Position numbers and translations under genes: made by a program. Source: a virus. From it: a DNA stretch of 64,000 nt. The stretch is taken from IMG/VR virus record IMGVR_UViG_3300005573_000995, positions 22,877 to 86,876 of that record; one strand, 5' to 3'. The notes under the pieces are model-generated. The model was not told the DNA's origin and ran no database searches. It was given only the letters and a program-made list of their open reading frames with translations. This document shows, in pieces, positions 6,103 through 58,980 of this stretch; the stretch's first letter is position 1; the number at the start of each line of letters is the position of its first letter.

Positions 6103-6864
6103 ATGACTTTTGAAGCAATTACTACTCCCAAAGTCTGGGAAATCCTGTTTGATGTAGCTCCACTTTGGGAAGAGGAGATAACGTTTGATATAGCTTCAGA
6201 AGGAATAACTTTCGGCGTCATGGACCCAAGCCATGTGGCGATGATAAAAGCAAAGATAGACAAAAGCGCTTTTGCTAGCTATAAGGTAGATACTCCTCAA
6301 AAGATTTCGGTATTAGCTAATGAGATTTCCTCTCTCCTTAAGAAGTTTCCTTCTGATAGTGCTGTCAAATTCTTTCTGGACGATGAGAAGAAATTAAGAA
6401 TTGAAGTGCTATCTGATATTGAGCGACATTATGAGTTTCATACGATAGACAATCCTGAGACTCCTGATACTCCAAAGATAACTACTGTTTATACCAATTC
6501 TTTGATTTGTTCTCCCCAATTTCTCCACAACTTAATTGACGGAATTGTCCCAGTTTCTCCTACCATCACTTTTGAAATAGACGAAAAGACATTTACAGTC
6601 TGGGCTAAAGGAGAAAGTGGTAAAAGCAAAGCTATACTTAGACAGAGAGATACAACAGAAGACTCTGCTTTTGAAATTAAAGCGACATCCTCAGCAAAAA
6701 GCACATACGATAGTTCTTATATTCTCAAACTGCTAAATATAGCGAAGAAGAATGCCCAGGAGGTTAAGCTTGATTTTGAGACAAATGCTCCATTACGTTT
6801 AACTCTTTCCTATGACAACGCAAGTGTAACTATGTATCTAGCCCCAATAAGGGGAGAAGATTAG
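6103..6864 (+). CDS. pcn: PCNA sliding clamp
   Basis: MDPSHVAM near the N-terminus and YLAP at the C-terminus; 253 aa. Confidence 0.95.
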   Translation: MTFEAITTPKVWEILFDVAPLWEEEITFDIASEGITFGVMDPSHVAMIKAKIDKSAFASYKVDTPQKISVLANEISSLLKKFPSDSAVKFFLDDEKKLRIEVLSDIERHYEFHTIDNPETPDTPKITTVYTNSLICSPQFLHNLIDGIVPVSPTITFEIDEKTFTVWAKGESGKSKAILRQRDTTEDSAFEIKATSSAKSTYDSSYILKLLNIAKKNAQEVKLDFETNAPLRLTLSYDNASVTMYLAPIRGED

Positions 6865-8687: not shown

Positions 8688-9440
8688 TTGTCTTCTTCTT
8701 TAGCAACAGATACTGCAACAATAGTTCTTAATCCGCAAGAAGCTAAAAATCATAAGGAATTAGTTGCAAAAATTCTATCGGCTGGCATCAACGTTATTGA
8801 AGATACTTTAGAAGTTGGTGATATTTTAGTTCTTGGTGCAAAGGAAAGAATACTTATAGAGCGAAAAGACTTAAACGACTTTCTACTAAGCGGTTATGGC
8901 CGTATCTGGGAACAAGTTTCAGAGATGTCTAAAAATGACGATAGATTTACTCTCTACGTTCTTGTCGAAGGAACTGAAATATGGGACAATCAGCTGAGGA
9001 GACCTGTCTATTGGGCAACATGGTGCAAGCGTTATCCAGACAAGGCCAAAATGTTTTATCAAGAACAGTATGGAGTTCAGAGATGGCGAATACCAATTAT
9101 TTGGACAGCAGATGTAAATGGGACTGCCGAATTTTTGATAGGGCTTGCTAAGAAGCTAGGGAAGCCTGCTGATGCCTCTGAAAGACCTATGCGTGGGGGC
9201 TTTAAGAAGGATTGGTCATTAGAGCAGAAGAGAAAATATTTGTTTGAAGCCTTTGGAACGGAAACGGGACACACATTATTTAAGCAGTTTCAAAGCCCAG
9301 CTAATTTGATAAATACATTAAGTTCTTTGCCGATGGAAAAGAAAATAGAAGCTATTTCTGAACTTAAATTAAAAAGTGAACGCAGAATTGGCGAAAAGAA
9401 GGCGAAGGAGATATTAGAAGTATTCGGCTTAATTAAGTAA
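8688..9440 (+). CDS. ERCC4/XPF (Hef/Mus81-like) structure-specific nuclease
   Basis: GD...ERKDLND motif; C-terminal HhH-like IGEKKA. Confidence 0.9.
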   Translation: MSSSLATDTATIVLNPQEAKNHKELVAKILSAGINVIEDTLEVGDILVLGAKERILIERKDLNDFLLSGYGRIWEQVSEMSKNDDRFTLYVLVEGTEIWDNQLRRPVYWATWCKRYPDKAKMFYQEQYGVQRWRIPIIWTADVNGTAEFLIGLAKKLGKPADASERPMRGGFKKDWSLEQKRKYLFEAFGTETGHTLFKQFQSPANLINTLSSLPMEKKIEAISELKLKSERRIGEKKAKEILEVFGLIK

Positions 9441-9478
9441 ACTAAAAGTTTAAATAGAGCATAAACATAGGTTAATGT

Positions 9479-9542
9479 GGCTACCGGGAGAGCGGTCTTT
9501 AAGGCCACTCGTGTGCATCTTTAATGGTGCCCCCGGCAGTCC
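9479..9542 (+). ncRNA. Putative structured small RNA 1 (three-way junction)
   Basis: Outer stem GGCTACCGGG/CCCGGCAGTC with two inner hairpins carrying TTTAA loops; TATA TTTAAATA at 9449, 30 nt upstream. Confidence 0.65.
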
Positions 9543-9564: not shown

Positions 9565-9810
9565 ATGTCTAAGAAAGTTAATGGCGCTAATAATAACGCT
9601 TATACGTCCTATGTAACTTACACGACCACAACTCCTATGGAATCTACAGTTATGTCTTTTCCGTGTGGCGTTTGTGGAGGAAGTGGTATAGTATACGGGA
9701 AAGACGGAAAGCCATATCTATGTCCCAAGTGTCAAGGCGAGAAAGTAGTTCATTCTTCTCCTCATCTAACCTATATGAATTGGGCTTTTACCGCTTTAGT
9801 CAATACGTGA
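9565..9810 (+). CDS. DnaJ-type CxxCxGxG Zn-finger protein
   Basis: CGVCGGSG...CPKCQG; paralog of 39666..39887. Confidence 0.65.
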   Translation: MSKKVNGANNNAYTSYVTYTTTTPMESTVMSFPCGVCGGSGIVYGKDGKPYLCPKCQGEKVVHSSPHLTYMNWAFTALVNT

Positions 9811-9881: not shown

Positions 9882-10115
9882 ATGGTCAAAGAGGAAGTAA
9901 ATGAGTGGCAGTTCACACCCGGAACGAAGATTAAGGTAGTTGTCCTGCAAGAAGAAGGTGGAGGCTATTATATCGGTAACTTTCTCAAGTATGGACGAGA
10001 TAACATTATCCTCTCCAACGCAACATTCCATGCGAGCAACGGTACTACCGAATCATACGCTTCTACGATAAGTATAAATAAGAGAATATATCGCCACGCT
10101 CATGTAGTCAAGTGA
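9882..10115 (+). CDS. Putative Sm/Lsm-fold protein
   Basis: 77 aa; KIKVVV..GYYIGNFLKYGRDNIILSNA resembles the Sm1 motif. Confidence 0.45.
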   Translation: MVKEEVNEWQFTPGTKIKVVVLQEEGGGYYIGNFLKYGRDNIILSNATFHASNGTTESYASTISINKRIYRHAHVVK

Positions 10116-10130
10116 TGGGAAGATAATAAG

Positions 10131-11210
10131 ATGACAACCTTTAAGTCATGGACGCCAGAGGAAGAACTCTGGCTCTTAAAGAATAAAACTCTTTCGATGA
10201 ATGCACTAGTCGAACATTTAGGGCGCACTTCTTCTTCAATTCGCAAGAAGATTGCTCGACTAGAAGAAGAGAATAAGATAAGGCAGAGTAATTTAATACA
10301 AATTTCCCTCCCTAAATATGAAAAGCAGATAACTCTCCCCATTCCCCCTCAAGAAGATAAAAGAGCAGACGATTATGCTTATCTAACTGTCAGCGATATT
10401 CACATAGGATATATCGATGACCACGGACATAGCATTAATGATGAGGTTAAAGAGAAGCTAGACAATTACAGGGATAATGTTCTGCATCTACTTAAATATC
10501 ATAATCCAGTTAAGCACTTTAGGCTTCTCTTTCTCGGTGATATGATACAAGGGCAAGAGAATTATGATGCTCAAAAAGATGACTCGCAACCAATATCTAT
10601 TCAGCTTAGTGAAGCGATAAATATTTTGTATCACTGGTTAATACCATTCCTCGATACTCTCTATTCTATGGGCATACAAACCGACATCTATTGCATAGCT
10701 GGCAATCATGGTAGAACGTCTAAGTATAGGTCTGACGTAAAAGATAATTTCGACCTTACAATCTACAACTGGCTAAGAGCTGCGATAACCGACAGATATA
10801 AGGGCTTGAATTTCTACATCGACCCAGAGACCCTCCTTATTAAAGAGGGAGGCAAAACAATCGCCGTTGAGCATGGGGATAAAGTTAGGGGACTATCCTT
10901 AGCTTCTATGCAGAAGCGTATAATGAATGTATCGGGAATGTATCGGACAATATTAGATGCCTACGTAATGGGGCATTGGCATACGGCAGGAGACTTATAC
11001 GTTGGGAATACTCGCTTAATAATGTCAGGAACTTTACAAGGAGAGACAGACTTATCGAATGCTATGGGAATTTTGCCTCAGGAGAATTGGTATTTCTTCT
11101 CGACTAAGGGAGGACATTGGGGCTTTACGTATAGAATTGATTACAGACCTCGTAATAAGGGCAAGGGCAGTGTAATGTCAAACGGAGATAAAAACCATGC
11201 AAAGGCATAA
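10131..11210 (+). CDS. Calcineurin-like metallophosphoesterase with N-terminal Myb/HTH-like domain
   Basis: SDIHIG, LGD, GNHG, EHGD and GHWH motifs; N-terminal WTPEEE...LGRT. Confidence 0.9.
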   Translation: MTTFKSWTPEEELWLLKNKTLSMNALVEHLGRTSSSIRKKIARLEEENKIRQSNLIQISLPKYEKQITLPIPPQEDKRADDYAYLTVSDIHIGYIDDHGHSINDEVKEKLDNYRDNVLHLLKYHNPVKHFRLLFLGDMIQGQENYDAQKDDSQPISIQLSEAINILYHWLIPFLDTLYSMGIQTDIYCIAGNHGRTSKYRSDVKDNFDLTIYNWLRAAITDRYKGLNFYIDPETLLIKEGGKTIAVEHGDKVRGLSLASMQKRIMNVSGMYRTILDAYVMGHWHTAGDLYVGNTRLIMSGTLQGETDLSNAMGILPQENWYFFSTKGGHWGFTYRIDYRPRNKGKGSVMSNGDKNHAKA

Positions 11211-17270: not shown

Positions 17271-17296
17271 TTAGCTGACAGTAAGGATGACGGAAT

Positions 17297-19957
17297 TTGA
17301 GTAGCACAACCAATTGGTACTATGAGAAGCTAAAGAGAGACTTAGATAAAATAAAGAAGAAAAAGCTACAAGAAGAGGATAAAGAGCTTATTCCAGACGA
17401 CATTATTGAATTTATAACCAAATTCCGAATTATTAGAGGAAGACCTTTTTTATTTGACTATGTAGACCCCAATACAGGGGTTGTTATTCCTCAAGCTAGA
17501 AAATATTTGTATGATATTTATAGAACAGCAGTTAATCCTCAAGTTCACGATATTATTATCACAAAAGGCAGGCAAATGGAAATCTCCGAATTAGCCGTTA
17601 ATGTTTTGCTTTATTTTGCTCTCAAATATCAAGACCGTCATCTAGTTTTACTTTATACTGCTCCTCGAGGAGACCAAGTCTCTCGCTTTTCCAATAGACG
17701 CTTGAGAATAGAAGCTATAAAACAGAGCAAGCTTATTCGAAAATATTTGACAGGTACTGATGCAACCGAGACAGTCCAGCTTGGCAACTGTACAACCTAT
17801 TTATACTCTGCTTGGGGGGAATTTGATGCAGTAAGGAACATCGATGCGGATGTAGCAATCGTTGATGAAGCTCAAGATATTCAATCTTCTGCTTTCCCCG
17901 TTATTCGTGAAAATATGGCTCATAGTTGGTTAAAGAAGTTTATCGTGATTGGAACACCGAAAGAAGCTAATTCCCCATTTGAGAATCTGTGGAACATGAG
18001 TGATAGGAGAGAATGGGATAAAGAGACAGGGAAGTGGATAAAAACTGTATCAGAGCCAAGACCTTTTGTCGGTTTTCATGTTTCTCAAGAAATGGCTCCT
18101 TGGATTACAAAAGAAGAGCTTGAAGCAAAGAAGATGCATTATACTCAACAGCAATTCTATAACGAAGTGCTAGGGCTGTTCTATAAGGGATTGGGTAGGC
18201 CAATCACAATCGAAGACTTATTTGCTTGCACAAACAGAGATATTGGATTCCAATCATTTGCAGAAGATACTTATGCAGGGGTGGATTGGGGGTGTTATGA
18301 TGAACAAACTAGAACACTCACTAATAGAGGATTTAAATATTATTGGGAAATAACTTCGGACGATTTGATTGCTCAATTTGACCCACAAACAGAAGAAATG
18401 TCATTTGTAAAGCCCTTAAAGAAAATAGTATTTCATCATCGGGGGAAAATGGTACGAATAAAGAATAAGCACCAAGATATGTTAATTACACCCGACCACA
18501 AATGCATATTTCGCAAAGAATGGCAAAAGAAATGGACCAAATGCGAAGCTCAAGACTTATTGTCTTTAGATGATATAATTTTACCCAGTAAGGCGCGATG
18601 GAAAGGTGAGAATAAAGAATACTTTATACTACCATCAACCATTCGCAAAGATTGGAACAGAATATATGAAGAAAAGAAAATTGATATGAAAGTGTGGTTA
18701 GAATTTCTCGGCTACTTTCTATCTGATGGATGTGTAGCCTTTAGAAACGCAGACCATCAGCATAGTAGAATGGTTCAGGTACAAATATGTCAAAGAAACG
18801 TACATCCTTACAAGGTTAATGCAATAAGGAATGTTTTGAATAAGTTGCCCTTCAAGTATGGAACATATTTCTATGAAAAGTATGGGGATTATCAGTTCAA
18901 AATTGCAAACAAACAGTTATATGAGTGGTTGGCAAATCATTGTGGTGCTGATTCAAAGACGAAGCACATACCAAGGGAATTTCTCGAATTATCTCCTGAA
19001 TATTTAAGAATACTCTTAGATTCTTTAATGTTAGGAGATGGATATTGGTCAAAAAATAAGACTGGGGGGACTTATTATACAATATCAAAGCAACTTGCGG
19101 ATGATGTATTTGAACTAACTATTAAACTTGGTTTCAATTCTCACTTATCTTATAGCTCTGGTAAATATAGAATAAACTTCTCTTTGTTAGATAAAAAACG
19201 GCATATAAGGGGAAAGAATGATGTTGAAATTGTAGACTATGATGGAATGGCATATTGTTTCTCTGTTCCAACAGGTTTCTTTGTTACAGAGCGTAATGGG
19301 TATATAGCATTCCAAGGTAACACTTCAACCAAAGATAATGCTGATACTGTATACTGGTGTATAAAACCATTAGACGATGGTAAAATTCATACGGTCTTCA
19401 TTTCCAAAATAGATACCCCAGATATAATGGAGCAAGTTCGGTTTGTAGCGAAATACATAGACCGCTATGATAACAGAAGGGTGGTTGTCGATTGGGGCTT
19501 TGGGCATGTTCAAACGCAAGAGCTACAAAAGATGTATGGGATGAGAGTCCTTCCTTGCGATTATAGTGGGAGTGAAATCAAACCAGTTGAAATCAAGCTC
19601 ACACAAACAGGCACAAAGCTACATCTGAACCGCACATTAGCAATAGATACCGTTTTCGACTTGATTAAGAAGAAGAACTTAGTTATCCCCGGTAAGAACA
19701 GAGAACTAACAGATTGGCTATATAAGAACTTTATGGTAATGTATCAAGAATCCGAAGTATCAACAACAGGGAAAAACATACGGCGATGGGTTAAGGACAA
19801 GGGAGAAGATGCCCATGATGACGCCGTTCATGCTCTCGTATATGCCTACTATGCTTATCAAACAGATAGAACCAGAAAAGCTATGGAACTTGGCGAAGGT
19901 CCTCCTCCTGTCTATTTCGTTCCTCATTCTGAAGAAGAGTTTGGGCTTCCTTTTTGA
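17297..19957 (+). CDS. terL: Terminase large subunit with an intein
   Basis: KGRQMEISE (Walker A variant), AIVDEAQ, IGTP; nuclease motifs GVDWG, VVDWGFG and HDDAVHA. Confidence 0.93.
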   Translation: MSSTTNWYYEKLKRDLDKIKKKKLQEEDKELIPDDIIEFITKFRIIRGRPFLFDYVDPNTGVVIPQARKYLYDIYRTAVNPQVHDIIITKGRQMEISELAVNVLLYFALKYQDRHLVLLYTAPRGDQVSRFSNRRLRIEAIKQSKLIRKYLTGTDATETVQLGNCTTYLYSAWGEFDAVRNIDADVAIVDEAQDIQSSAFPVIRENMAHSWLKKFIVIGTPKEANSPFENLWNMSDRREWDKETGKWIKTVSEPRPFVGFHVSQEMAPWITKEELEAKKMHYTQQQFYNEVLGLFYKGLGRPITIEDLFACTNRDIGFQSFAEDTYAGVDWGCYDEQTRTLTNRGFKYYWEITSDDLIAQFDPQTEEMSFVKPLKKIVFHHRGKMVRIKNKHQDMLITPDHKCIFRKEWQKKWTKCEAQDLLSLDDIILPSKARWKGENKEYFILPSTIRKDWNRIYEEKKIDMKVWLEFLGYFLSDGCVAFRNADHQHSRMVQVQICQRNVHPYKVNAIRNVLNKLPFKYGTYFYEKYGDYQFKIANKQLYEWLANHCGADSKTKHIPREFLELSPEYLRILLDSLMLGDGYWSKNKTGGTYYTISKQLADDVFELTIKLGFNSHLSYSSGKYRINFSLLDKKRHIRGKNDVEIVDYDGMAYCFSVPTGFFVTERNGYIAFQGNTSTKDNADTVYWCIKPLDDGKIHTVFISKIDTPDIMEQVRFVAKYIDRYDNRRVVVDWGFGHVQTQELQKMYGMRVLPCDYSGSEIKPVEIKLTQTGTKLHLNRTLAIDTVFDLIKKKNLVIPGKNRELTDWLYKNFMVMYQESEVSTTGKNIRRWVKDKGEDAHDDAVHALVYAYYAYQTDRTRKAMELGEGPPPVYFVPHSEEEFGLPF
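18293..19321 (+). mobile_element. Intein (343 aa, LAGLIDADG type) in the terminase nuclease domain
   Basis: GVDWG|CYDEQT...IAFQGN|TS; blocks ITPDH, FLGYFLSDG and LMLGDG. Confidence 0.92.
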
Positions 19958-24952: not shown

Positions 24953-25093
24953 ATGATAACCCAAAACCGAAACAGAAAGAATAACCTAGTTTACGAGGGC
25001 CGCTTTATGTGCTACGAATGTGGCACGGTCTTCGTGAGTACTAGGTATTTGCATGCACATATAAAGAATGTGCATGTGCATAAGGAGGAGTGA
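24953..25093 (+). CDS. 46-aa classical C2H2 zinc-finger protein
   Basis: FMCYECGTVFVSTRYLHAHIKNVH (C-x2-C-x12-H-x4-H); TATA at about 24913. Confidence 0.8.
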   Translation: MITQNRNRKNNLVYEGRFMCYECGTVFVSTRYLHAHIKNVHVHKEE

Positions 25094-25099
25094 AAGACC

Positions 25100-25327
25100 A
25101 TGTCCGATGAGCTAGTTCTTATGCGAAAAGACCGTTTAGGTCCTGGACAGATGATGTACAAGTGTAGGGAATGCAGAGAGCACACAATACACAACTATGA
25201 GATAAGCATGCCATCATCTTATCATCAGCATTATAGGATTACGCTAGACATTTACAAGTGTATCAATTGCGGAACCTTGAAGTATATTTCCCATAGAGAG
25301 GGTTATGTCGAGAGGTCCATGATGTAA
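25100..25327 (+). CDS. Zn-ribbon protein
   Basis: CREC...CINC; SD GGAGGAG. Confidence 0.75.
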   Translation: MSDELVLMRKDRLGPGQMMYKCRECREHTIHNYEISMPSSYHQHYRITLDIYKCINCGTLKYISHREGYVERSMM

Positions 25328-30426: not shown

Positions 30427-30903
30427 ATGAACAGAAAGGAACTCGCTATAACAGCTTTAATGACTACTCTTTATGTCGTCTTAGTTCAATCTCTTGGTCC
30501 TCTATCCTTTATGCAAATACAGGTTAGAATAGCGAATGCTCTAATAGGTGTAGTGCCAGTAGTGGGTGAACCGGCAGTGATTGGTCTTACGCTAGGTGTA
30601 TTAATAGGAAATATCAACAGTCCTCTGGGCTTTATTGACCTTCTCTCGTTTATCCCTTCCCTTTTTGGAATGATAATAGTTCTCAAGACTAAAGGAAAGA
30701 TGGTAATGGTAGGGCTATCGGTCTATAGTCTATTACTTTCAGCTTGGGTAGCTTTTATGCTAAACATGATATTTGGAGTTCCATATCTTATAACATTTCT
30801 CTATGTGCTTGGAGGAATGATTATATCTACTGTCGTCCTAGGCTATCTGGTATATATTGGCTTAAAGAAAAGAATGAGAAGCTATGAGAGTAGCAAAAAT
30901 TGA
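30427..30903 (+). CDS. queT: QueT-family queuosine-precursor transporter (ECF S-component)
   Basis: ALM..LYVVL...PLSF..IQVRIA.AL...A.IGLTLG..IGN..SPLG..D pattern; multi-TM. Confidence 0.8.
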   Translation: MNRKELAITALMTTLYVVLVQSLGPLSFMQIQVRIANALIGVVPVVGEPAVIGLTLGVLIGNINSPLGFIDLLSFIPSLFGMIIVLKTKGKMVMVGLSVYSLLLSAWVAFMLNMIFGVPYLITFLYVLGGMIISTVVLGYLVYIGLKKRMRSYESSKN

Positions 30904-31758: not shown

Positions 31759-31837
31759 GGGGCAGATAGGGATTTAGCACATCCTCTTTTTGAGGATGGT
31801 TTGCATCGTAAGGTGCAGACGAAACTTGTCTGCCTCC
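31759..31837 (+). ncRNA. Putative structured small RNA 2 (three-way junction)
   Basis: Outer stem GGGGCAGATAGG/CTTGTCTGCCTC; hairpins CATCCTC-T5-GAGGATG and GTTTGCATC-GTAA-GGTGCAGAC; TATA 30 nt upstream. Confidence 0.75.
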
Positions 31838-31891
31838 TAATTTAGCCCAAACTTTATATATAAGACTCTAACCCTATTGTATCGAATCAAA

Positions 31892-32050
31892 ATGGCACAC
31901 AAAGTACTGACTAGGATAGGTCTAGTATCTTTAGGCATACTGGTCTTAATAGGAGTTATCATCTTCGACGTAACAGTTTGGAACAATTTATTTTCTTCCG
32001 GAAATGATTTGGGAAGAACAATAGGATATGGTATAGGATGCAAGGGATAG
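31892..32050 (+). CDS. 52-aa membrane peptide
   Basis: MAHKVLTRIGLVSLGILVLIGVIIFD...; TATA at 31853. Confidence 0.55.
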   Translation: MAHKVLTRIGLVSLGILVLIGVIIFDVTVWNNLFSSGNDLGRTIGYGIGCKG

Positions 32051-32066
32051 ACTCATAAAATGAGGA

Positions 32067-32252
32067 TTGAAAGACGAGATGGCTTGTCCCTACGCACAAA
32101 CTTATGCGGAACAAGGCTTCAATTACGTGGGTTCGGAAGACTTTTCCCACGCTTCTAATGGACCATATCAACAGATGATTAACAAGCTGATAGAGCAAGG
32201 ATGGACTGTCAAGTTCGTGGGTTTTGAGAGAGAGGAGGTGAGCAATCAATGA
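32067..32252 (+). CDS. Hypothetical protein
   Basis: Coupled to the next gene (ATGA). Confidence 0.55.
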   Translation: MKDEMACPYAQTYAEQGFNYVGSEDFSHASNGPYQQMINKLIEQGWTVKFVGFEREEVSNQ

Positions 32253-32434: not shown

Positions 32435-32481
32435 AAGACTGTAGGAAAAGTTTATATATTGTCCTTTTAATAGTGATATGC

Positions 32482-32651
32482 GCGGTGGAGCCAACGGAGC
32501 CAACAAGCGCCTTAGGTGCTTGCGCCCGTTGTGTATTCCTCCGCAAGTGGAGTGCGACCAGAGTCTCGCGAACTAGGCGAGGTTGCTCTGCTCCACTGTT
32601 TGGAGGTTAGTCCTCCGCGATGGGAGACAGTCGCAGAAGTCTCCCACCGCA
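32482..32651 (+). ncRNA. Putative structured RNA 3 (~170 nt, multi-helix, possible pseudoknot)
   Basis: GC-rich island with at least 7 complementary helices; TATA TTTATATA at 32451. Confidence 0.75.
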
Positions 32652-32680
32652 TACCCCTTAAATTGAGGTTTAACAACAAT

Positions 32681-32899
32681 TTGTTTCGTTGGCTTAAACG
32701 GCTATTTTCGTCTAGAAAGAAAGCCTTTTTGGGGCTATTTTGTGAGGAGCATTTGCCCGAAGTTATCAAATATCATGGAACTTGTATAGTAACTCCACTA
32801 CAAGGAGATTCGGTTCCTACTGACCAAAGGTGTAACGTATACACTTGTAAAAACTTAGTAGTATATTCTGTTGAGAAAGACGAGGATAAAATATTTTGA
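32681..32899 (+). CDS. Hypothetical protein (likely true start of ORF 32516..32899)
   Basis: GAGGT SD before the TTG at 32681; the upstream part of the ORF is the structured RNA. Confidence 0.55.
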   Translation: MFRWLKRLFSSRKKAFLGLFCEEHLPEVIKYHGTCIVTPLQGDSVPTDQRCNVYTCKNLVVYSVEKDEDKIF

Positions 32900-32922: not shown

Positions 32923-33117
32923 ATGGCTACATTACGCTGTCCTTATTGTGGTAAGTTCTTGAGTGTAGCTTATTATAAAATACATGTGAGATATATTTGC
33001 GAACAAAACCCAAACAACTATCAAACTACTACCTGCCCTAAGTGTGGTTACACATATAAAATAAGGGGGAGGAAACCAATAAATGCAAAACCTTATATAG
33101 AAGAAGAAGATTCTTAA
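32923..33117 (+). CDS. Zn-finger protein
   Basis: CPYC...H...C; CPKC. Confidence 0.7.
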   Translation: MATLRCPYCGKFLSVAYYKIHVRYICEQNPNNYQTTTCPKCGYTYKIRGRKPINAKPYIEEEDS

Positions 33118-34130: not shown

Positions 34131-34227
34131 GGGGAGAGGGGAATAAAGGACGTGAAGAACGCCGAAAAAACTAATTGTCTTCTGTCCTTGGCCTAGCGTC
34201 CCCTCTCCTTCCACAAAACTGCTAGGC
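34131..34227 (-). ncRNA. Putative pseudoknotted RNA 4
   Basis: GCCTAGC/GCTAGGC helix interleaved with GGAGAGGGGA/TCCCCTCTCC, plus an inner hairpin; minus-strand TATA TTTAAATA begins at 34257, 30 nt before the first paired G. Confidence 0.6.
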
Positions 34228-34284
34228 AATAATGATATTTAAAAGGATATATTTAAAGTTTTCAAATCTTTAGGTGAACAAAAT

Positions 34285-43759: not shown

Positions 43760-44176
43760 ATGTCTTCAGCAACTCTCTTTGGTAGTTTGGATGGAACCTC
43801 TCCTCTAATTGCAGACAGATGGCTCGTTACTTTCATCGCTGGCGATTCAACGCTTACAACTGCTGGTAAGGTTTGTAAGGTAGCTTCAAGTGGTGGATAT
43901 GTTACTGCTGCTACTGCAGGAACCGATATACTTCTGGGCGTAGTTGTAGTTCCAGGAGCTTCTGGTAGTAGAGTAACTGTTCAGACACGTGGCATAGCAA
44001 AGGTAACAACTTATGCTGGCACTACGGCTGGGCAGTTAGTTATACCTGACGCTTCTGGTGGAGTAACTTCTGTTGCTCTTTCCGCTCTCTCGACTCCTGG
44101 ACAAGCATATCCACGTGGAGTGGCTCTTACAACCCAATCGACTAGCGGTGGTAGCGCGTACATATTGCTTTGGTGA
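43760..44176 (+). CDS. Capsid decoration/cement protein
   Basis: Gly/Ala/Thr-rich with LLGV, V.V..RG, AGQLV and RGVAL; immediately upstream of the MCP. Confidence 0.8.
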   Translation: MSSATLFGSLDGTSPLIADRWLVTFIAGDSTLTTAGKVCKVASSGGYVTAATAGTDILLGVVVVPGASGSRVTVQTRGIAKVTTYAGTTAGQLVIPDASGGVTSVALSALSTPGQAYPRGVALTTQSTSGGSAYILLW

Positions 44177-44182
44177 TAATGT

Positions 44183-45094
44183 ATGGCTTTAGTTAGAGAC
44201 GCTTTCACATGGGTCGATACTGGTGCTATCGCATATCCAGCTCTATACAACAGAATAATTCAGCTAACCATGCCTGCTCTGAAACTAAAGCAGTTGCTTC
44301 CTGAATTTCCGATACTTCAGGGTAGAACTGCTACGTTTGTCAAGGAGTCAGGTAGCAGAGCTGCAGCTATAACTCAAGTCGGGGAAGGTGCTGAGGTTGC
44401 GATGGACTTTACGAATTATACTTACTTTACTGTCACACCTTACAAGGTGGGCATAAGGGAAAGGATAACTCGTGAGACCATCGAAGACCTATATATCCCC
44501 GTTATTGAGTCTCAGCTTGCTCGTCTTGCTAGACGAATGGCTTATACTATCGACAAGGACGTTCAAACTGTCATTTCAAATGGAGCTGCTAATTCGTTCT
44601 CCGCTACAGGAGTAACGATTGCTTACACCGGTACTGCGACTTCATCTCCCGGTACGATAGGAGTAAACGACATCACCCAAGCAAAGTCTGTAATCGAAGG
44701 CTATTCGCTAATTGCTGATAGCTTCGCATTACATCCGTTGAACGCCAACGATTTAACGAGACTACCGCAGTTTGCTTCACAAGACATCTTCGGAACAAGT
44801 GTTTACAAGGAAGGACTTGGTTGGGAGACTGGTGCTGTCGGTGGAGTCATGGGTCTTGACTTCTACATCACACCAATTGTGCCTGCTGGAGAGGCTTATG
44901 TGCTAAGCACGGGTAAGAACTTATCTGCTGCTTATGCACCTCTGGGCTTCTTTGCGATTAAGAGGCCGTTGGTTATAGATGTGGACTTCAAGAAGGAATA
45001 CGACAGCTACGACGTAGTTGCCACAACTAGGTATGCTCCTGTAATCACTTACGGAGAGTCTATTGTGAAGATACTCGGTCTTAGGACAAGCTAA
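44183..45094 (+). CDS. Major capsid protein (HK97 fold)
   Basis: VGEGAE, PYKVG...ITRETIED and LHP...G.VMGL; position in the head module. Confidence 0.92.
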   Translation: MALVRDAFTWVDTGAIAYPALYNRIIQLTMPALKLKQLLPEFPILQGRTATFVKESGSRAAAITQVGEGAEVAMDFTNYTYFTVTPYKVGIRERITRETIEDLYIPVIESQLARLARRMAYTIDKDVQTVISNGAANSFSATGVTIAYTGTATSSPGTIGVNDITQAKSVIEGYSLIADSFALHPLNANDLTRLPQFASQDIFGTSVYKEGLGWETGAVGGVMGLDFYITPIVPAGEAYVLSTGKNLSAAYAPLGFFAIKRPLVIDVDFKKEYDSYDVVATTRYAPVITYGESIVKILGLRTS

Positions 45095-57258: not shown

Positions 57259-58980
57259 GTGGCTGCTGAGGGAGATACTGGTGTTCAAGTAAATATAACT
57301 GCAAACGTTAGAGCCAGAGCTGAAGGCATAGAAGCGATACAGCAGATTTACAACGAATTAAGACAAGGAGCAACTTATGACACCGAAATGCAAGCTCGCT
57401 TACGAGAAGCAAGGGCTGGCATTGTTGGACAAAACAGAGCTTATTACTCTTTGGTTCTAGCAGAACGAGAACAGCATGAAACTCTCTTCCGTGTTTCACA
57501 AGCTTATGCAAAATTTGCAACTGCTCTTGCTCGAATAAATAGTCTCTATACTCAATATGCAGTTATACAAATCAGAAACATGGAGATGGAAAAAAGAGCA
57601 GAAGAAGCTACTGAAAAGCGCGTAGAGTTAGAACAAAGAAGGGCTGAATGGCAAAAAACCGTTAATATGCTCCAAGCTGCAGGAATGAGTAATACAGACC
57701 AATATCGTCAAGCTCTTTATAACCTTTCGCTTGTGCAAGAAGCTTATAATAAAGCAAAAGAAAATGAAAAGAAAGCTGTAATGGAAGCTCAACGTGCGCA
57801 ACAGGAGACGGTTCTTTGGACGATAGTGGCTGGAGCACAACTTATTGGAACAATTCAACCGCTTCTCTTAGGCTATACAAGACTAATGGCTCTTTTAAGA
57901 GCGCAGGGGATTATTGGTGGAATAAGCGCTCTTGCTAGAGGAGCAGGAACGGCAGCAGTAGCAGCACAAGCTGGAGCTGCTGTAGCTGCACCAGCAGCCG
58001 GAACTGCTGCTACAACTGCTGGAGCAGCAGGAGCAGGAGTGGCTGGTGTAACAAGTCTCTCAGCTCTCATAGCACCATTAACTCTTGCTACAACAATGGT
58101 CGCATTTCCATTACTAATGGCTAGTATAGAAGAAGCTATTGACCCCGAAGGAGCTAGGAAAAGAACAGAAGAGAGTAGAAGGGCGCAAGAAAGAGCTAAT
58201 GAGATAATTACGAGAGAAACTGCAAAGCTTGGAGAAGGGCTAGCTTCTCTTTATGACCCAACACAGGCGCTTGCTCAGATGTATATGACTCAATCTATAA
58301 GGGCTGGTGTCTTTGTCGATAGATTTTCTGATTTAAACAATACTGTCGATAATACAATTAACATATTTCAATCTTTAAATGATACGGCTGATGAATTCTG
58401 GAGAATTACGCATAAAAGTCTAGAGACTCCACCAACGCCTACTTCATATACCCTAGAAGAACCCATGCCCGAATTCGGTTCACAAGAATGGCAAACTTAT
58501 ATGGAAGAAGTTTATGGACTAAGCAGTGATGTCATCCAAAATATAATGACGATGGGAGTACAAACATTTGAGGAGTTTAAGGCTAAATATGAGGCTATCT
58601 ATGGAACACTAACGCCATCATCACCACCAACACAAACTGAAACTCCATCAATCACATTCACTTCTTATGAAGATTTATGGAAATACGTTGCGTCTCATCC
58701 AGAAATACTGAGACAACTCTTTCCGCAAGCACAAAAGGGTGGAGTCGTTACAAAAGAAACAATCATTACGGTTGGTGAGAGAGGCAAAAAAGAAGCAATT
58801 ATTCCTTTAGAAAGTGGAATAAATATTTTCAAGAATTTGATTCCGCCTCCACAAAAAGAGGAAAAACGAGAACCAATTAGGATTATTTTAGAAATTCAGC
58901 CATCAGAGATAAGTAAAATAGTTTCGGCGAAATTGGGTGAGAGACTAAACGTAACGCGTGGGGTGAGTAATGCCTTTTGA
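57259..58980 (+). CDS. Tape measure protein (short, 573 aa)
   Basis: Helical, Ala-rich; C-terminal AQKGGVV...VGE.G..EAIIPL. Confidence 0.8.
   Translation: MAAEGDTGVQVNITANVRARAEGIEAIQQIYNELRQGATYDTEMQARLREARAGIVGQNRAYYSLVLAEREQHETLFRVSQAYAKFATALARINSLYTQYAVIQIRNMEMEKRAEEATEKRVELEQRRAEWQKTVNMLQAAGMSNTDQYRQALYNLSLVQEAYNKAKENEKKAVMEAQRAQQETVLWTIVAGAQLIGTIQPLLLGYTRLMALLRAQGIIGGISALARGAGTAAVAAQAGAAVAAPAAGTAATTAGAAGAGVAGVTSLSALIAPLTLATTMVAFPLLMASIEEAIDPEGARKRTEESRRAQERANEIITRETAKLGEGLASLYDPTQALAQMYMTQSIRAGVFVDRFSDLNNTVDNTINIFQSLNDTADEFWRITHKSLETPPTPTSYTLEEPMPEFGSQEWQTYMEEVYGLSSDVIQNIMTMGVQTFEEFKAKYEAIYGTLTPSSPPTQTETPSITFTSYEDLWKYVASHPEILRQLFPQAQKGGVVTKETIITVGERGKKEAIIPLESGINIFKNLIPPPQKEEKREPIRIILEIQPSEISKIVSAKLGERLNVTRGVSNAF

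Follow-up and report, generated by a model that had tools for sequence, protein, structure and literature searches.

The DNA considered here is a stretch of 64,000 nucleotides (the window in what follows) that covers bases 22877-86876 of the 86,876-bp IMG/VR virus record IMGVR_UViG_3300005573_000995. The record is rated 76% complete, and the completeness estimate gives a full virus of about 114 kb. It comes from a virus of the head-tail type with archaeal features and archaeal replication genes, found in hot-spring metagenomes, and its overall GC content is 0.382. On the plus strand of the window, at 32482-32650, lies an element of about 170 nt, called RNA D here, which is the strongest non-coding GC island, with the highest GC content of the genome (0.63 in 100 nt). 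The queT gene (30427-30903; E 9.8e-19 for QueT) is located 1.6 kb upstream, with several open reading frames (ORFs) and TATA boxes in between. Downstream, a possible small gene (32753-32899) is followed by a zinc-ribbon gene (32923-33117). RNA D is a real feature and very probably an RNA gene, which belongs to an undescribed RNA family with two members in this virus. The second member, RNA A, is encoded on the minus strand at positions 10679-10807 of the genome, 12 kb before the window starts.

An archaeal-type promoter was recognised in front of RNA D by sequence and motif scan (32444-32458). It consists of a purine-rich GGAAAAG resembling a B recognition element (BRE) and the TATA box TTTATATA at 32451-58. 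As an earlier note on this DNA had claimed, the RNA starts 31 nt after the TATA box: this is the distance from the first T of the box to the first paired G, at 32482, and the predicted transcription start is at about 32480-82. A start at the base of the first stem would fit the usual archaeal spacing of TATA box and transcription start. The TATA box is immediately followed by TCCTTTTAA (32462-32470). Its only other copy in the genome (34239-34247, minus strand) has the same place behind the TATA box of a minus-strand RNA candidate at 34131-34263, and it may be a shared promoter-proximal element.

The predicted fold is exceptionally stable. The minimum free energy (MFE) of a 191-nt stretch is -88.7 kcal/mol, compared with -64.6 +/- 4.3 for shuffled sequences (z -5.6), and none of 200 shuffles equalled it. 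When 6,940 segments of the genome (150 nt, both strands) were ranked by stability, RNA A came first and RNA D second (-71.2, with a mean of -27.3 and a standard deviation of 7.3), both about six standard deviations off the mean. Further outliers in fold stability are found at 57900-58100, 24975-25124, 43950-44099 and 44850-44999 on the plus strand and at 401-575 on the minus strand. The first of these lies inside a 573-aa ORF (57259-58980) and has a GC content of 0.58; the second is mostly intergenic, with a GC content of only 0.44.

The earlier note had listed a set of complementarities in RNA D, and every one of them is present in the sequence at its place. The 5' strand GCGGTGGAG (32482-90) is complementary to CTCCACTGT (32591-99) over 9 bp, 2 of them G-U. 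The pairs CAACGG/CCGTTG and CAAGCGCC/GGTGCTTG are found, as are CAGAG (32559-63) with CTCTG (32586-90), TCTCGC (32564-69) with GCGAGG (32577-82), GGAGG with CCTCC (32602-16) and TGGGAGAC with GTCTCCCA (32621-46). In addition, the loop GTCGCA (32630-35) is complementary to TGCGAC (32553-58), and the 5' GCGGTGG to CCACCGC at the 3' end (32644-50). The nested MFE structure arranges RNA D as four hairpins in series and not as a four-way junction. In this fold H1 (32482-32544) is a long irregular hairpin with a UUA triloop, a variable module that aligns to the shorter H1 of RNA A. H2 (32547-32596), in its bulge form, is built of stem 1 (GTGGAG 32547-52 with CTCCAC 32591-96, favoured by the comparison of the paralogues), stem 2 (32559-63 with 32586-90) and an apical stem (32564-69 with 32577-82) closed by the loop GAACUAG. 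Stem 1 and stem 2 are separated on the 5' side by the 6-nt bulge UGCGAC (32553-32558). H3 (32602-32616) is the simple hairpin GGAGG-UUAGU-CCUCC, and H4 (32621-32646) carries the conserved loop A-GUCGCA-GAA. The MFE structure also holds a pairing GCGACC/GGUUGC within H2, which is displaced by the bulge form that the paralogue supports.

RNA A is the second non-coding GC island of the genome and its most stable segment, with a fold z of -6.0. A TTTATATA box of its own precedes the first stem by 31 nt, T6 and T5 runs stand directly after the last hairpin, and a separate TATA box for the next gene follows. It is flanked by a coiled-coil gene, which lies beside a DpdA-like gene, and by a glycosyltransferase/sugar operon. 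Like RNA D it forms four hairpins in series, and the orientation of each copy matches its own TATA box and the surrounding genes. The signature GGAGAC-N5-CAGAAG-N-CTCC of H4 occurs at exactly two sites in the 86,876 bp, the last hairpins of RNA D and RNA A, and 18 of its 22 bases are identical between them. A model built from RNA D alone with the MFE structure, searched unfiltered on both strands of 84 kb, recovered RNA A over its full length with H1 to H4 aligned (25.6 bits, E 2e-4). Unrelated matches stayed at or below 9.9 bits, apart from two reverse-strand matches on RNA D itself (15.7 and 10 bits). With a core-only model (R2, 32546-32650), in which H2 has the CAGAG/CTCTG and TCTCGC/GCGAGG arm and 32553-58 is left as a bulge, RNA A scored 37.6 bits (E 7.5e-6). 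This arm, proposed in the earlier note, is thus upheld by RNA A.

RNA D and RNA A were compared on the model-based alignments. These comprise 36 pairs in six helices, and 94.3% of the 70 cells are paired. Ten pairs are changed on both sides, compared with 0-2 when the partners were slid by 1-3 columns, a count reached by 1 of 500 shuffles; such counts are indicative only, since just two sequences were compared and the alignment had been fitted to the nested helices. The compensatory pairs are spread over the core: three of the five pairs of H2 stem 2, one in stem 1, two in H3 and two in the stem of H4. The features that we propose for the family are found in both members: four hairpins in series with a TATA box about 31 nt upstream, an H2 with a 6-nt 5' bulge UGYGRC between stem 1 and a 5-bp stem 2 and nothing opposite, and the H4 signature with loop positions 4-9 complementary to the bulge. 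The earlier note had assigned this promoter geometry to four RNAs. It does recur, exactly in RNA A (31 nt) and roughly in another element at window position 9475 (29 nt), but RNA A is the only homologue of RNA D.

The possible pseudoknot mentioned in the earlier note gained from this comparison. In RNA D, H4 loop positions 4-9 (GUCGCA, 32630-32635) pair with the bulge at 32553-32558. In RNA A the same register of the loop (GCCACA) pairs with the same bulge, here UGUGGC, again between stem 1 and the 5-bp stem 2 with nothing opposite. Watson-Crick pairing holds at all six positions in each of the RNAs; two pairs are compensatory (U-A to C-G and G-C to A-U) and none is broken. The pseudoknot was absent from every model used, and its evidence is therefore free of the bias of alignment fitting. 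In shuffled sequences an upstream complement of this fixed 6-mer arises by chance in 3.8-4.4% of cases per RNA, and of any loop 6-mer in 17-22%. The energy of the fold that exposes the bulge, added to that of the pseudoknot duplex (-7.9 and -8.5 kcal/mol), roughly equals the energy of the nested MFE structure in RNA D and is more favourable in RNA A.

A relative of about 90% identity, present as contig fragments in a sediment run (X3), keeps the promoter, positions 32544-92 and the 3' strand of H4. Its contig joins 32477 directly to 32544 and so skips exactly H1 (66 nt); intervening letters may exist. If the junction is a clean deletion, stem 1 would start 30 nt behind the start of the TATA box, by simple arithmetic, and the promoter geometry would be repeated. 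At the 3' end the relative has CTATCGA in place of CCACCGC, and the change of C32645 to T turns a G-C pair of H4 into G-U. The conserved unit is a core of about 100 nt, made of H2, H3 and H4 with the pseudoknot (32546-32650). H1 is a variable or dispensable add-on, because it is absent or replaced in this relative.

Two long-range closures of the earlier note fared less well. The closure of a four-way junction by GCGGTGGAG/CTCCACTGT has no counterpart in RNA A; CTCCAC is the 3' strand of H2 stem 1 in both RNAs, and is therefore unavailable for a junction closed by the 5' end. Pairing of the 5' end with CCACCGC likewise lacks a counterpart in RNA A, and the X3 relative alters three of the six bases at 32645-50, its H1 being missing or replaced. 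The alternative pairings of the 5' end are close in energy at 75-85 C. A conformational switch, also suggested earlier, is thus possible by energies and found no other support.

No known RNA class accounts for RNA D. With Rfam 15 (4,227 models, including RNase P, SRP, ribozymes and riboswitches) there was no match in the window at the gathering score; at E up to 10, four chance-level matches were found around RNA D (the best at 16.4 bits, with a gathering score of 70) and six around RNA A. ARAGORN predicted neither tRNA nor tmRNA in the window, nor in the whole genome with introns of up to 200 nt allowed. A tRNA with introns was also set aside by reading: there is no T-arm, and the 17 nt before CCACCGC cannot form a T-stem of 5 bp. 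The same holds for box C/D and H/ACA RNAs, since the only UGAU is located ahead of the predicted start, the 3' end lacks a nearby CUGA and no ACA has a large internal pocket beside it; no snoRNA-type Rfam match falls on RNA D. A K-loop in H4 was rejected by reading. An antisense role was rejected, as 11-nt complements elsewhere in the genome are no more frequent than by chance (7 for RNA D, 8 for RNA A). The earlier note had seen a possible link to preQ0/preQ1. It found no support: at E up to 10 neither RNA D nor RNA A matches a preQ1 model, a queT leader would have to lie elsewhere, and RNA D is upstream of no 7-deazaguanine gene. By contrast, the idea of a novel non-coding RNA (ncRNA) is strengthened by the lack of any Rfam or tRNA match, the canonical archaeal promoter, the extreme stability and the paralogue that shares the fold with compensatory changes.

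Further members of the family were searched for in several ways. RNA D gave no blastn match in 50,697 phage records. The relatives of the upstream 61-aa gene sit at two loci (44-56% identity), neither with the RNA. Those of the VWA/metallopeptidase gene sit at two distant loci, and the 100-aa downstream gene has only two relatives, of about 47% identity. Nor was the RNA matched by blastn or nhmmer at 80 capsid-gene loci. Model R1 found no match in 1,048,490 bases, none of 22 whole related records matched, and model R3 found none in 1,181,094 bases of loci, mostly of capsid-related viruses. Exact-pattern scans of IMG/VR, JGI metagenomes and GTDB genomes used H4 of RNA D, the 3' end common to run X3 and the signature shared by RNA D and RNA A; they yielded no homologue, and diverged members would escape such exact motifs. 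The shared signature occurs at 18 loci in viral contigs (15 in one conserved gene context and three others), none of which has the stems, and at 16 loci in metagenome contigs, all unrelated. At one of the latter (L105), in a contig of 66% GC, the identical 22-mer forms a hairpin immediately behind a stop codon; we judged this a chance event.

Behind H4, RNA D continues into the tail motif CCCCTTAAATTGAGG (32654-32668), which contains a Shine-Dalgarno-like GAGG and resembles the tail of the 9475 element. The sequence CCCCTTAA has four copies in the genome, three of them in RNA candidates (RNA A, the 9475 element and RNA D). Archaeal RNA polymerase terminates at oligo-T, and an AT-rich stretch with T-runs at 32680-32741 (TTTGTTT at 32680-86, T4 at 32705-08, T5 at 32726-30 and T4 at 32738-41) is a candidate termination zone, judged from sequence only. 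The possible small gene behind it would encode 48 aa from a TTG start preceded by GAGGAG. Its codon score is positive only from about 32744, and it has no promoter of its own. The 9475 element itself is a structured stretch of 64 nt (9475-9540) located behind a TTTAAATA box and followed directly by CCCCTTAATTAGAGG and an ATG at 9565, which opens an 81-aa ORF with a CxxCxGxG zinc finger. By this position the element looks like a 5' leader.

Our preferred explanation, held with about even confidence, is that RNA D is the gene of a thermostable structured ncRNA with its own BRE/TATA promoter, a pseudoknotted core and a variable H1, and that this RNA acts in trans. RNA D would be transcribed from its strong promoter and fold into four hairpins in series, the 6-bp pseudoknot tying the loop of H4 to the bulge of H2. 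Such a compact pseudoknotted core could make the RNA abundant and resistant to nucleases at the high temperature of the host. Its partner may then be a protein of the virus or the host, for which it would serve as scaffold or decoy. If termination at the T-runs downstream is leaky, the same promoter could also feed the small genes. A stable scaffold or decoy acting in trans appears as the most likely mechanism because of the strong promoter, the GC-rich stems, the 3' hairpin locked by the pseudoknot and the two paralogues with a variable 5' module. The gene and its fold follow from the data given above, while the mode of action is our inference.

Several observations weigh against this explanation. 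The minus strand folds equally well (-87.3 kcal/mol, z -6.1), and therefore it is the promoter alone that assigns RNA D to its strand. Among the runs listed with the RNA D stretch none is of RNA, and the three examined are DNA contigs. The comparative support comes from two paralogues of one genome and fragments of one relative, and the alignment used to count the nested helices had itself been fitted to the model. The searches described above found no homologue elsewhere whose context would indicate a function. No binding partner for RNA D was identified. A nearby ORF (window 9882-10115) is a candidate for an Sm-like protein, with a pattern that by eye resembles Sm1. Pfam gave no match to it at E up to 1, no PDB sequence matched, and its AlphaFold2 model is all-beta with a pLDDT of 56, too poor for a structure search. 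Three further points, which speak for a leader function, count on the same side. The downstream ORFs (TTG 32753 and ATG 32923) have Shine-Dalgarno-like sites and no TATA box of their own. RNA D has no T-run directly after H4, its T-runs being those at 32680-32741. Finally, the tail CCCACCGCATACCCCTTAAATTGAGG of RNA D can be aligned with that of the 9475 element, with agreement at 20 of 26 positions, and the 9475 element ends 9 nt before an ATG.

RNA D could accordingly be a cis-acting 5' leader of an mRNA for the two small downstream genes, working by conditional termination at the T-runs, by occlusion of the GAGG, by protection of the 5' end or by binding of a ligand or protein, including the idea of a switch or preQ sensor. 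We consider this possible but doubtful. The several T-runs between RNA D and the ORF, and the similar energies of the alternative 5'-end pairings, would suit such control. However, the homologue RNA A is a closed unit, with its own TATA box, a T6/T5 terminator after H4 and a new TATA box for the next gene. Other first genes of this virus begin 25-35 nt behind their TATA boxes, which would make a leader of 270 nt exceptional. At E up to 10 neither RNA D nor RNA A matches a riboswitch family. In the X3 relative the would-be switching strand at the 5' end is missing or replaced, and no 7-deazaguanine gene follows RNA D. Weighing both sides, we read RNA D as an RNA gene with read-through into the small genes. 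An RNA that catalyses or assembles, that is, a new self-cleaving ribozyme or a multimer held by intermolecular loop-bulge pairing as in the pRNA rings of phi29, is an improbable alternative. The compact pseudoknotted fold, in which some unpaired bases near the pseudoknot are conserved (AC...GAAG), would be in keeping with it, and the differing but mutually matched loop and bulge of each paralogue would keep assemblies apart. Nonetheless, no known ribozyme or pRNA family is matched, a loop A of the hairpin-ribozyme type was discarded because the AGUC of the RNA D loop is not kept in RNA A, and with a terminase-type packaging enzyme present a pRNA would not be needed. Moreover, covariation cannot separate intramolecular from intermolecular pairing.

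A DNA-level element, with hairpins extruded at a replication origin or at a packaging or recombination site, seems very improbable to us. It would agree with the equal folding of both strands and with helices that are mostly Watson-Crick. Against this, the orientation of each copy agrees with local transcription and with a consensus TATA box 31 nt away, and RNA A is then followed by a T-run terminator. The helices of RNA D also include G-U pairs (U-G in the apical stem), which would be C-A on the other strand, and GC enrichment confined to stems is what would be expected from selection for RNA stability at high temperature. It is scarcely credible that RNA D is part of a coding ORF, or a GC-rich stretch formed by chance. 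A frame of 127 codons (ORF 32516-32899) does run open through RNA D, but it has no ATG, its codon score stays near zero within the RNA and is negative at 32636-32743, and the protein collection has no protein from it. A gene start at TTG 32681 was likewise rejected, with a negative codon score up to about 32743 and no protein on record. Chance is opposed by the 200 shuffles, none of which folds as well, and by a paralogue that shares the structure and not the frame.

To our knowledge, structured ncRNAs encoded by archaeal viruses are almost unknown, and no description of one appears in the titles and abstract openings covered by a shallow check of the literature. What is found here is a pair of paralogous promoter-driven RNAs, outliers in GC content and stability, with a pseudoknot supported by covariation, in a large tailed virus of hot springs. 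A bolder and rather unlikely proposal is a class of archaeal-virus RNAs with a specific biochemical activity, of which RNA D and RNA A would be the first members. Their conserved pseudoknotted core would sense a small molecule, or bind a host protein of defence or RNA processing and neutralise it, with specificity tuned by the exchangeable 5' hairpin. If true, the two RNAs would be an archaeal counterpart of the RNA-based counter-defence of phages. The thermostable core of about 100 nt is a concrete small target for probing, crystallisation and pull-downs. Should it be a decoy, sensor or catalyst, RNA-level interplay between virus and host in thermophilic archaea would be opened to experiment.

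The genomic setting gives hints on the host. The virus encodes a PriX-type primase, a PCNA, an ERCC4 nuclease and an RNA ligase (PF09414), at 597-1619, 6103-6864 and 8688-9440 of the window and at 17282-18190 of the genome. PriX is known from Sulfolobales-type archaea, and its presence is a hint of a Thermoproteota host. An intein is present in the family B DNA polymerase and another in the large terminase, which carries a GpA_ATPase domain. The capsid protein is of the Phage_capsid_4 type; the relatives of a 1,461-aa ORF sit about 4.5 kb upstream of the capsid gene. DHH proteins and a sugar-modification operon are encoded as well, and the match to DpdA is weak (E 4.5e-4, below the Pfam cut-off). 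No reverse transcriptase, Cas, IscB/TnpB-like or Ro-like gene was found among the ORFs scanned, a subset of all ORFs. The capsid relatives (51-66% identity) are small viruses or proviruses of about 30 kb with 42-54% GC, and therefore not close kin of this virus overall; about half of the 22 such records checked are classed as proviruses. Its family B DNA polymerase has no close relative in IMG/VR. Near-identical DNA is present in two hot-spring metagenome runs, and the relative of about 90% identity in the sediment run X3 is partial.

Two other elements are located near RNA D. A unit of 37 nt resembling a CRISPR repeat (window 32037-32073) has one copy in the window, between two small ORFs, and ends in ATTGAAAG. 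It gave sub-threshold matches to Rfam CRISPR-DR47, DR36 and DR45, and no exact match in GTDB genomes or IMG/VR. In both hot-spring runs the unit is also carried by separate short contigs, at hundreds to about 1,700x (peaks of 1,679x and 786x) where the virus has 32x and 9x, and with unlike flanks on both sides. It is a candidate for a solitary repeat of the host's array, comparable to RNA anti-CRISPRs (PMC10651486). A link between RNA D and this repeat was dismissed, with no complementarity seen. The other element is an RNA C candidate at 31759-31837. A second strain in run X1 differs at 31762-31996 by 36 substitutions and 5 indels in 235 nt. Its changes in the stems of RNA C (C31816T, T31835C and C31836T) are all exchanges between G-C and G-U, which by reading keep the pairing.

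Comparison with known systems places RNA D near several RNAs and within none of their families. In bacteria, preQ1 riboswitches (classes I-III) precede queT (COG4708) genes. They are pseudoknotted like RNA D, and this virus encodes QueT along with the weak DpdA match. However, RNA D is 3-5 times longer, stands outside the queT leader and matches none of their models at E up to 10. The pRNA of phi29-type phages, for which Rfam holds a family, is similarly an RNA of about 170 nt from a tailed virus, with loop complementarities that covary between relatives. RNA D differs by the lack of a match to that family, by a large terminase with a gpA-type ATPase domain and by pairing that is not indicated to be intermolecular. 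Klein, Misulovin and Eddy reportedly screened AT-rich genomes of hyperthermophiles for GC-rich structural RNA genes in 2002. RNA D is viral and not cellular, and matches none of those families held in Rfam, but it shows the combination through which ncRNAs of cells were detected there: GC content that rises sharply to 0.60-0.63 in a genome of 38% GC, a very stable fold and a promoter. The adenovirus VA RNA and the EBERs of Epstein-Barr virus are abundant structured small RNAs of viruses that bind host proteins. They are unrelated to RNA D in sequence and family, and the latter has an archaeal host and no known partner, so that the likeness would be one of kind only. It comprises a length of about 160-170 nt, a GC-rich, multi-hairpin and non-coding RNA, a strong promoter of its own and two paralogues per genome.

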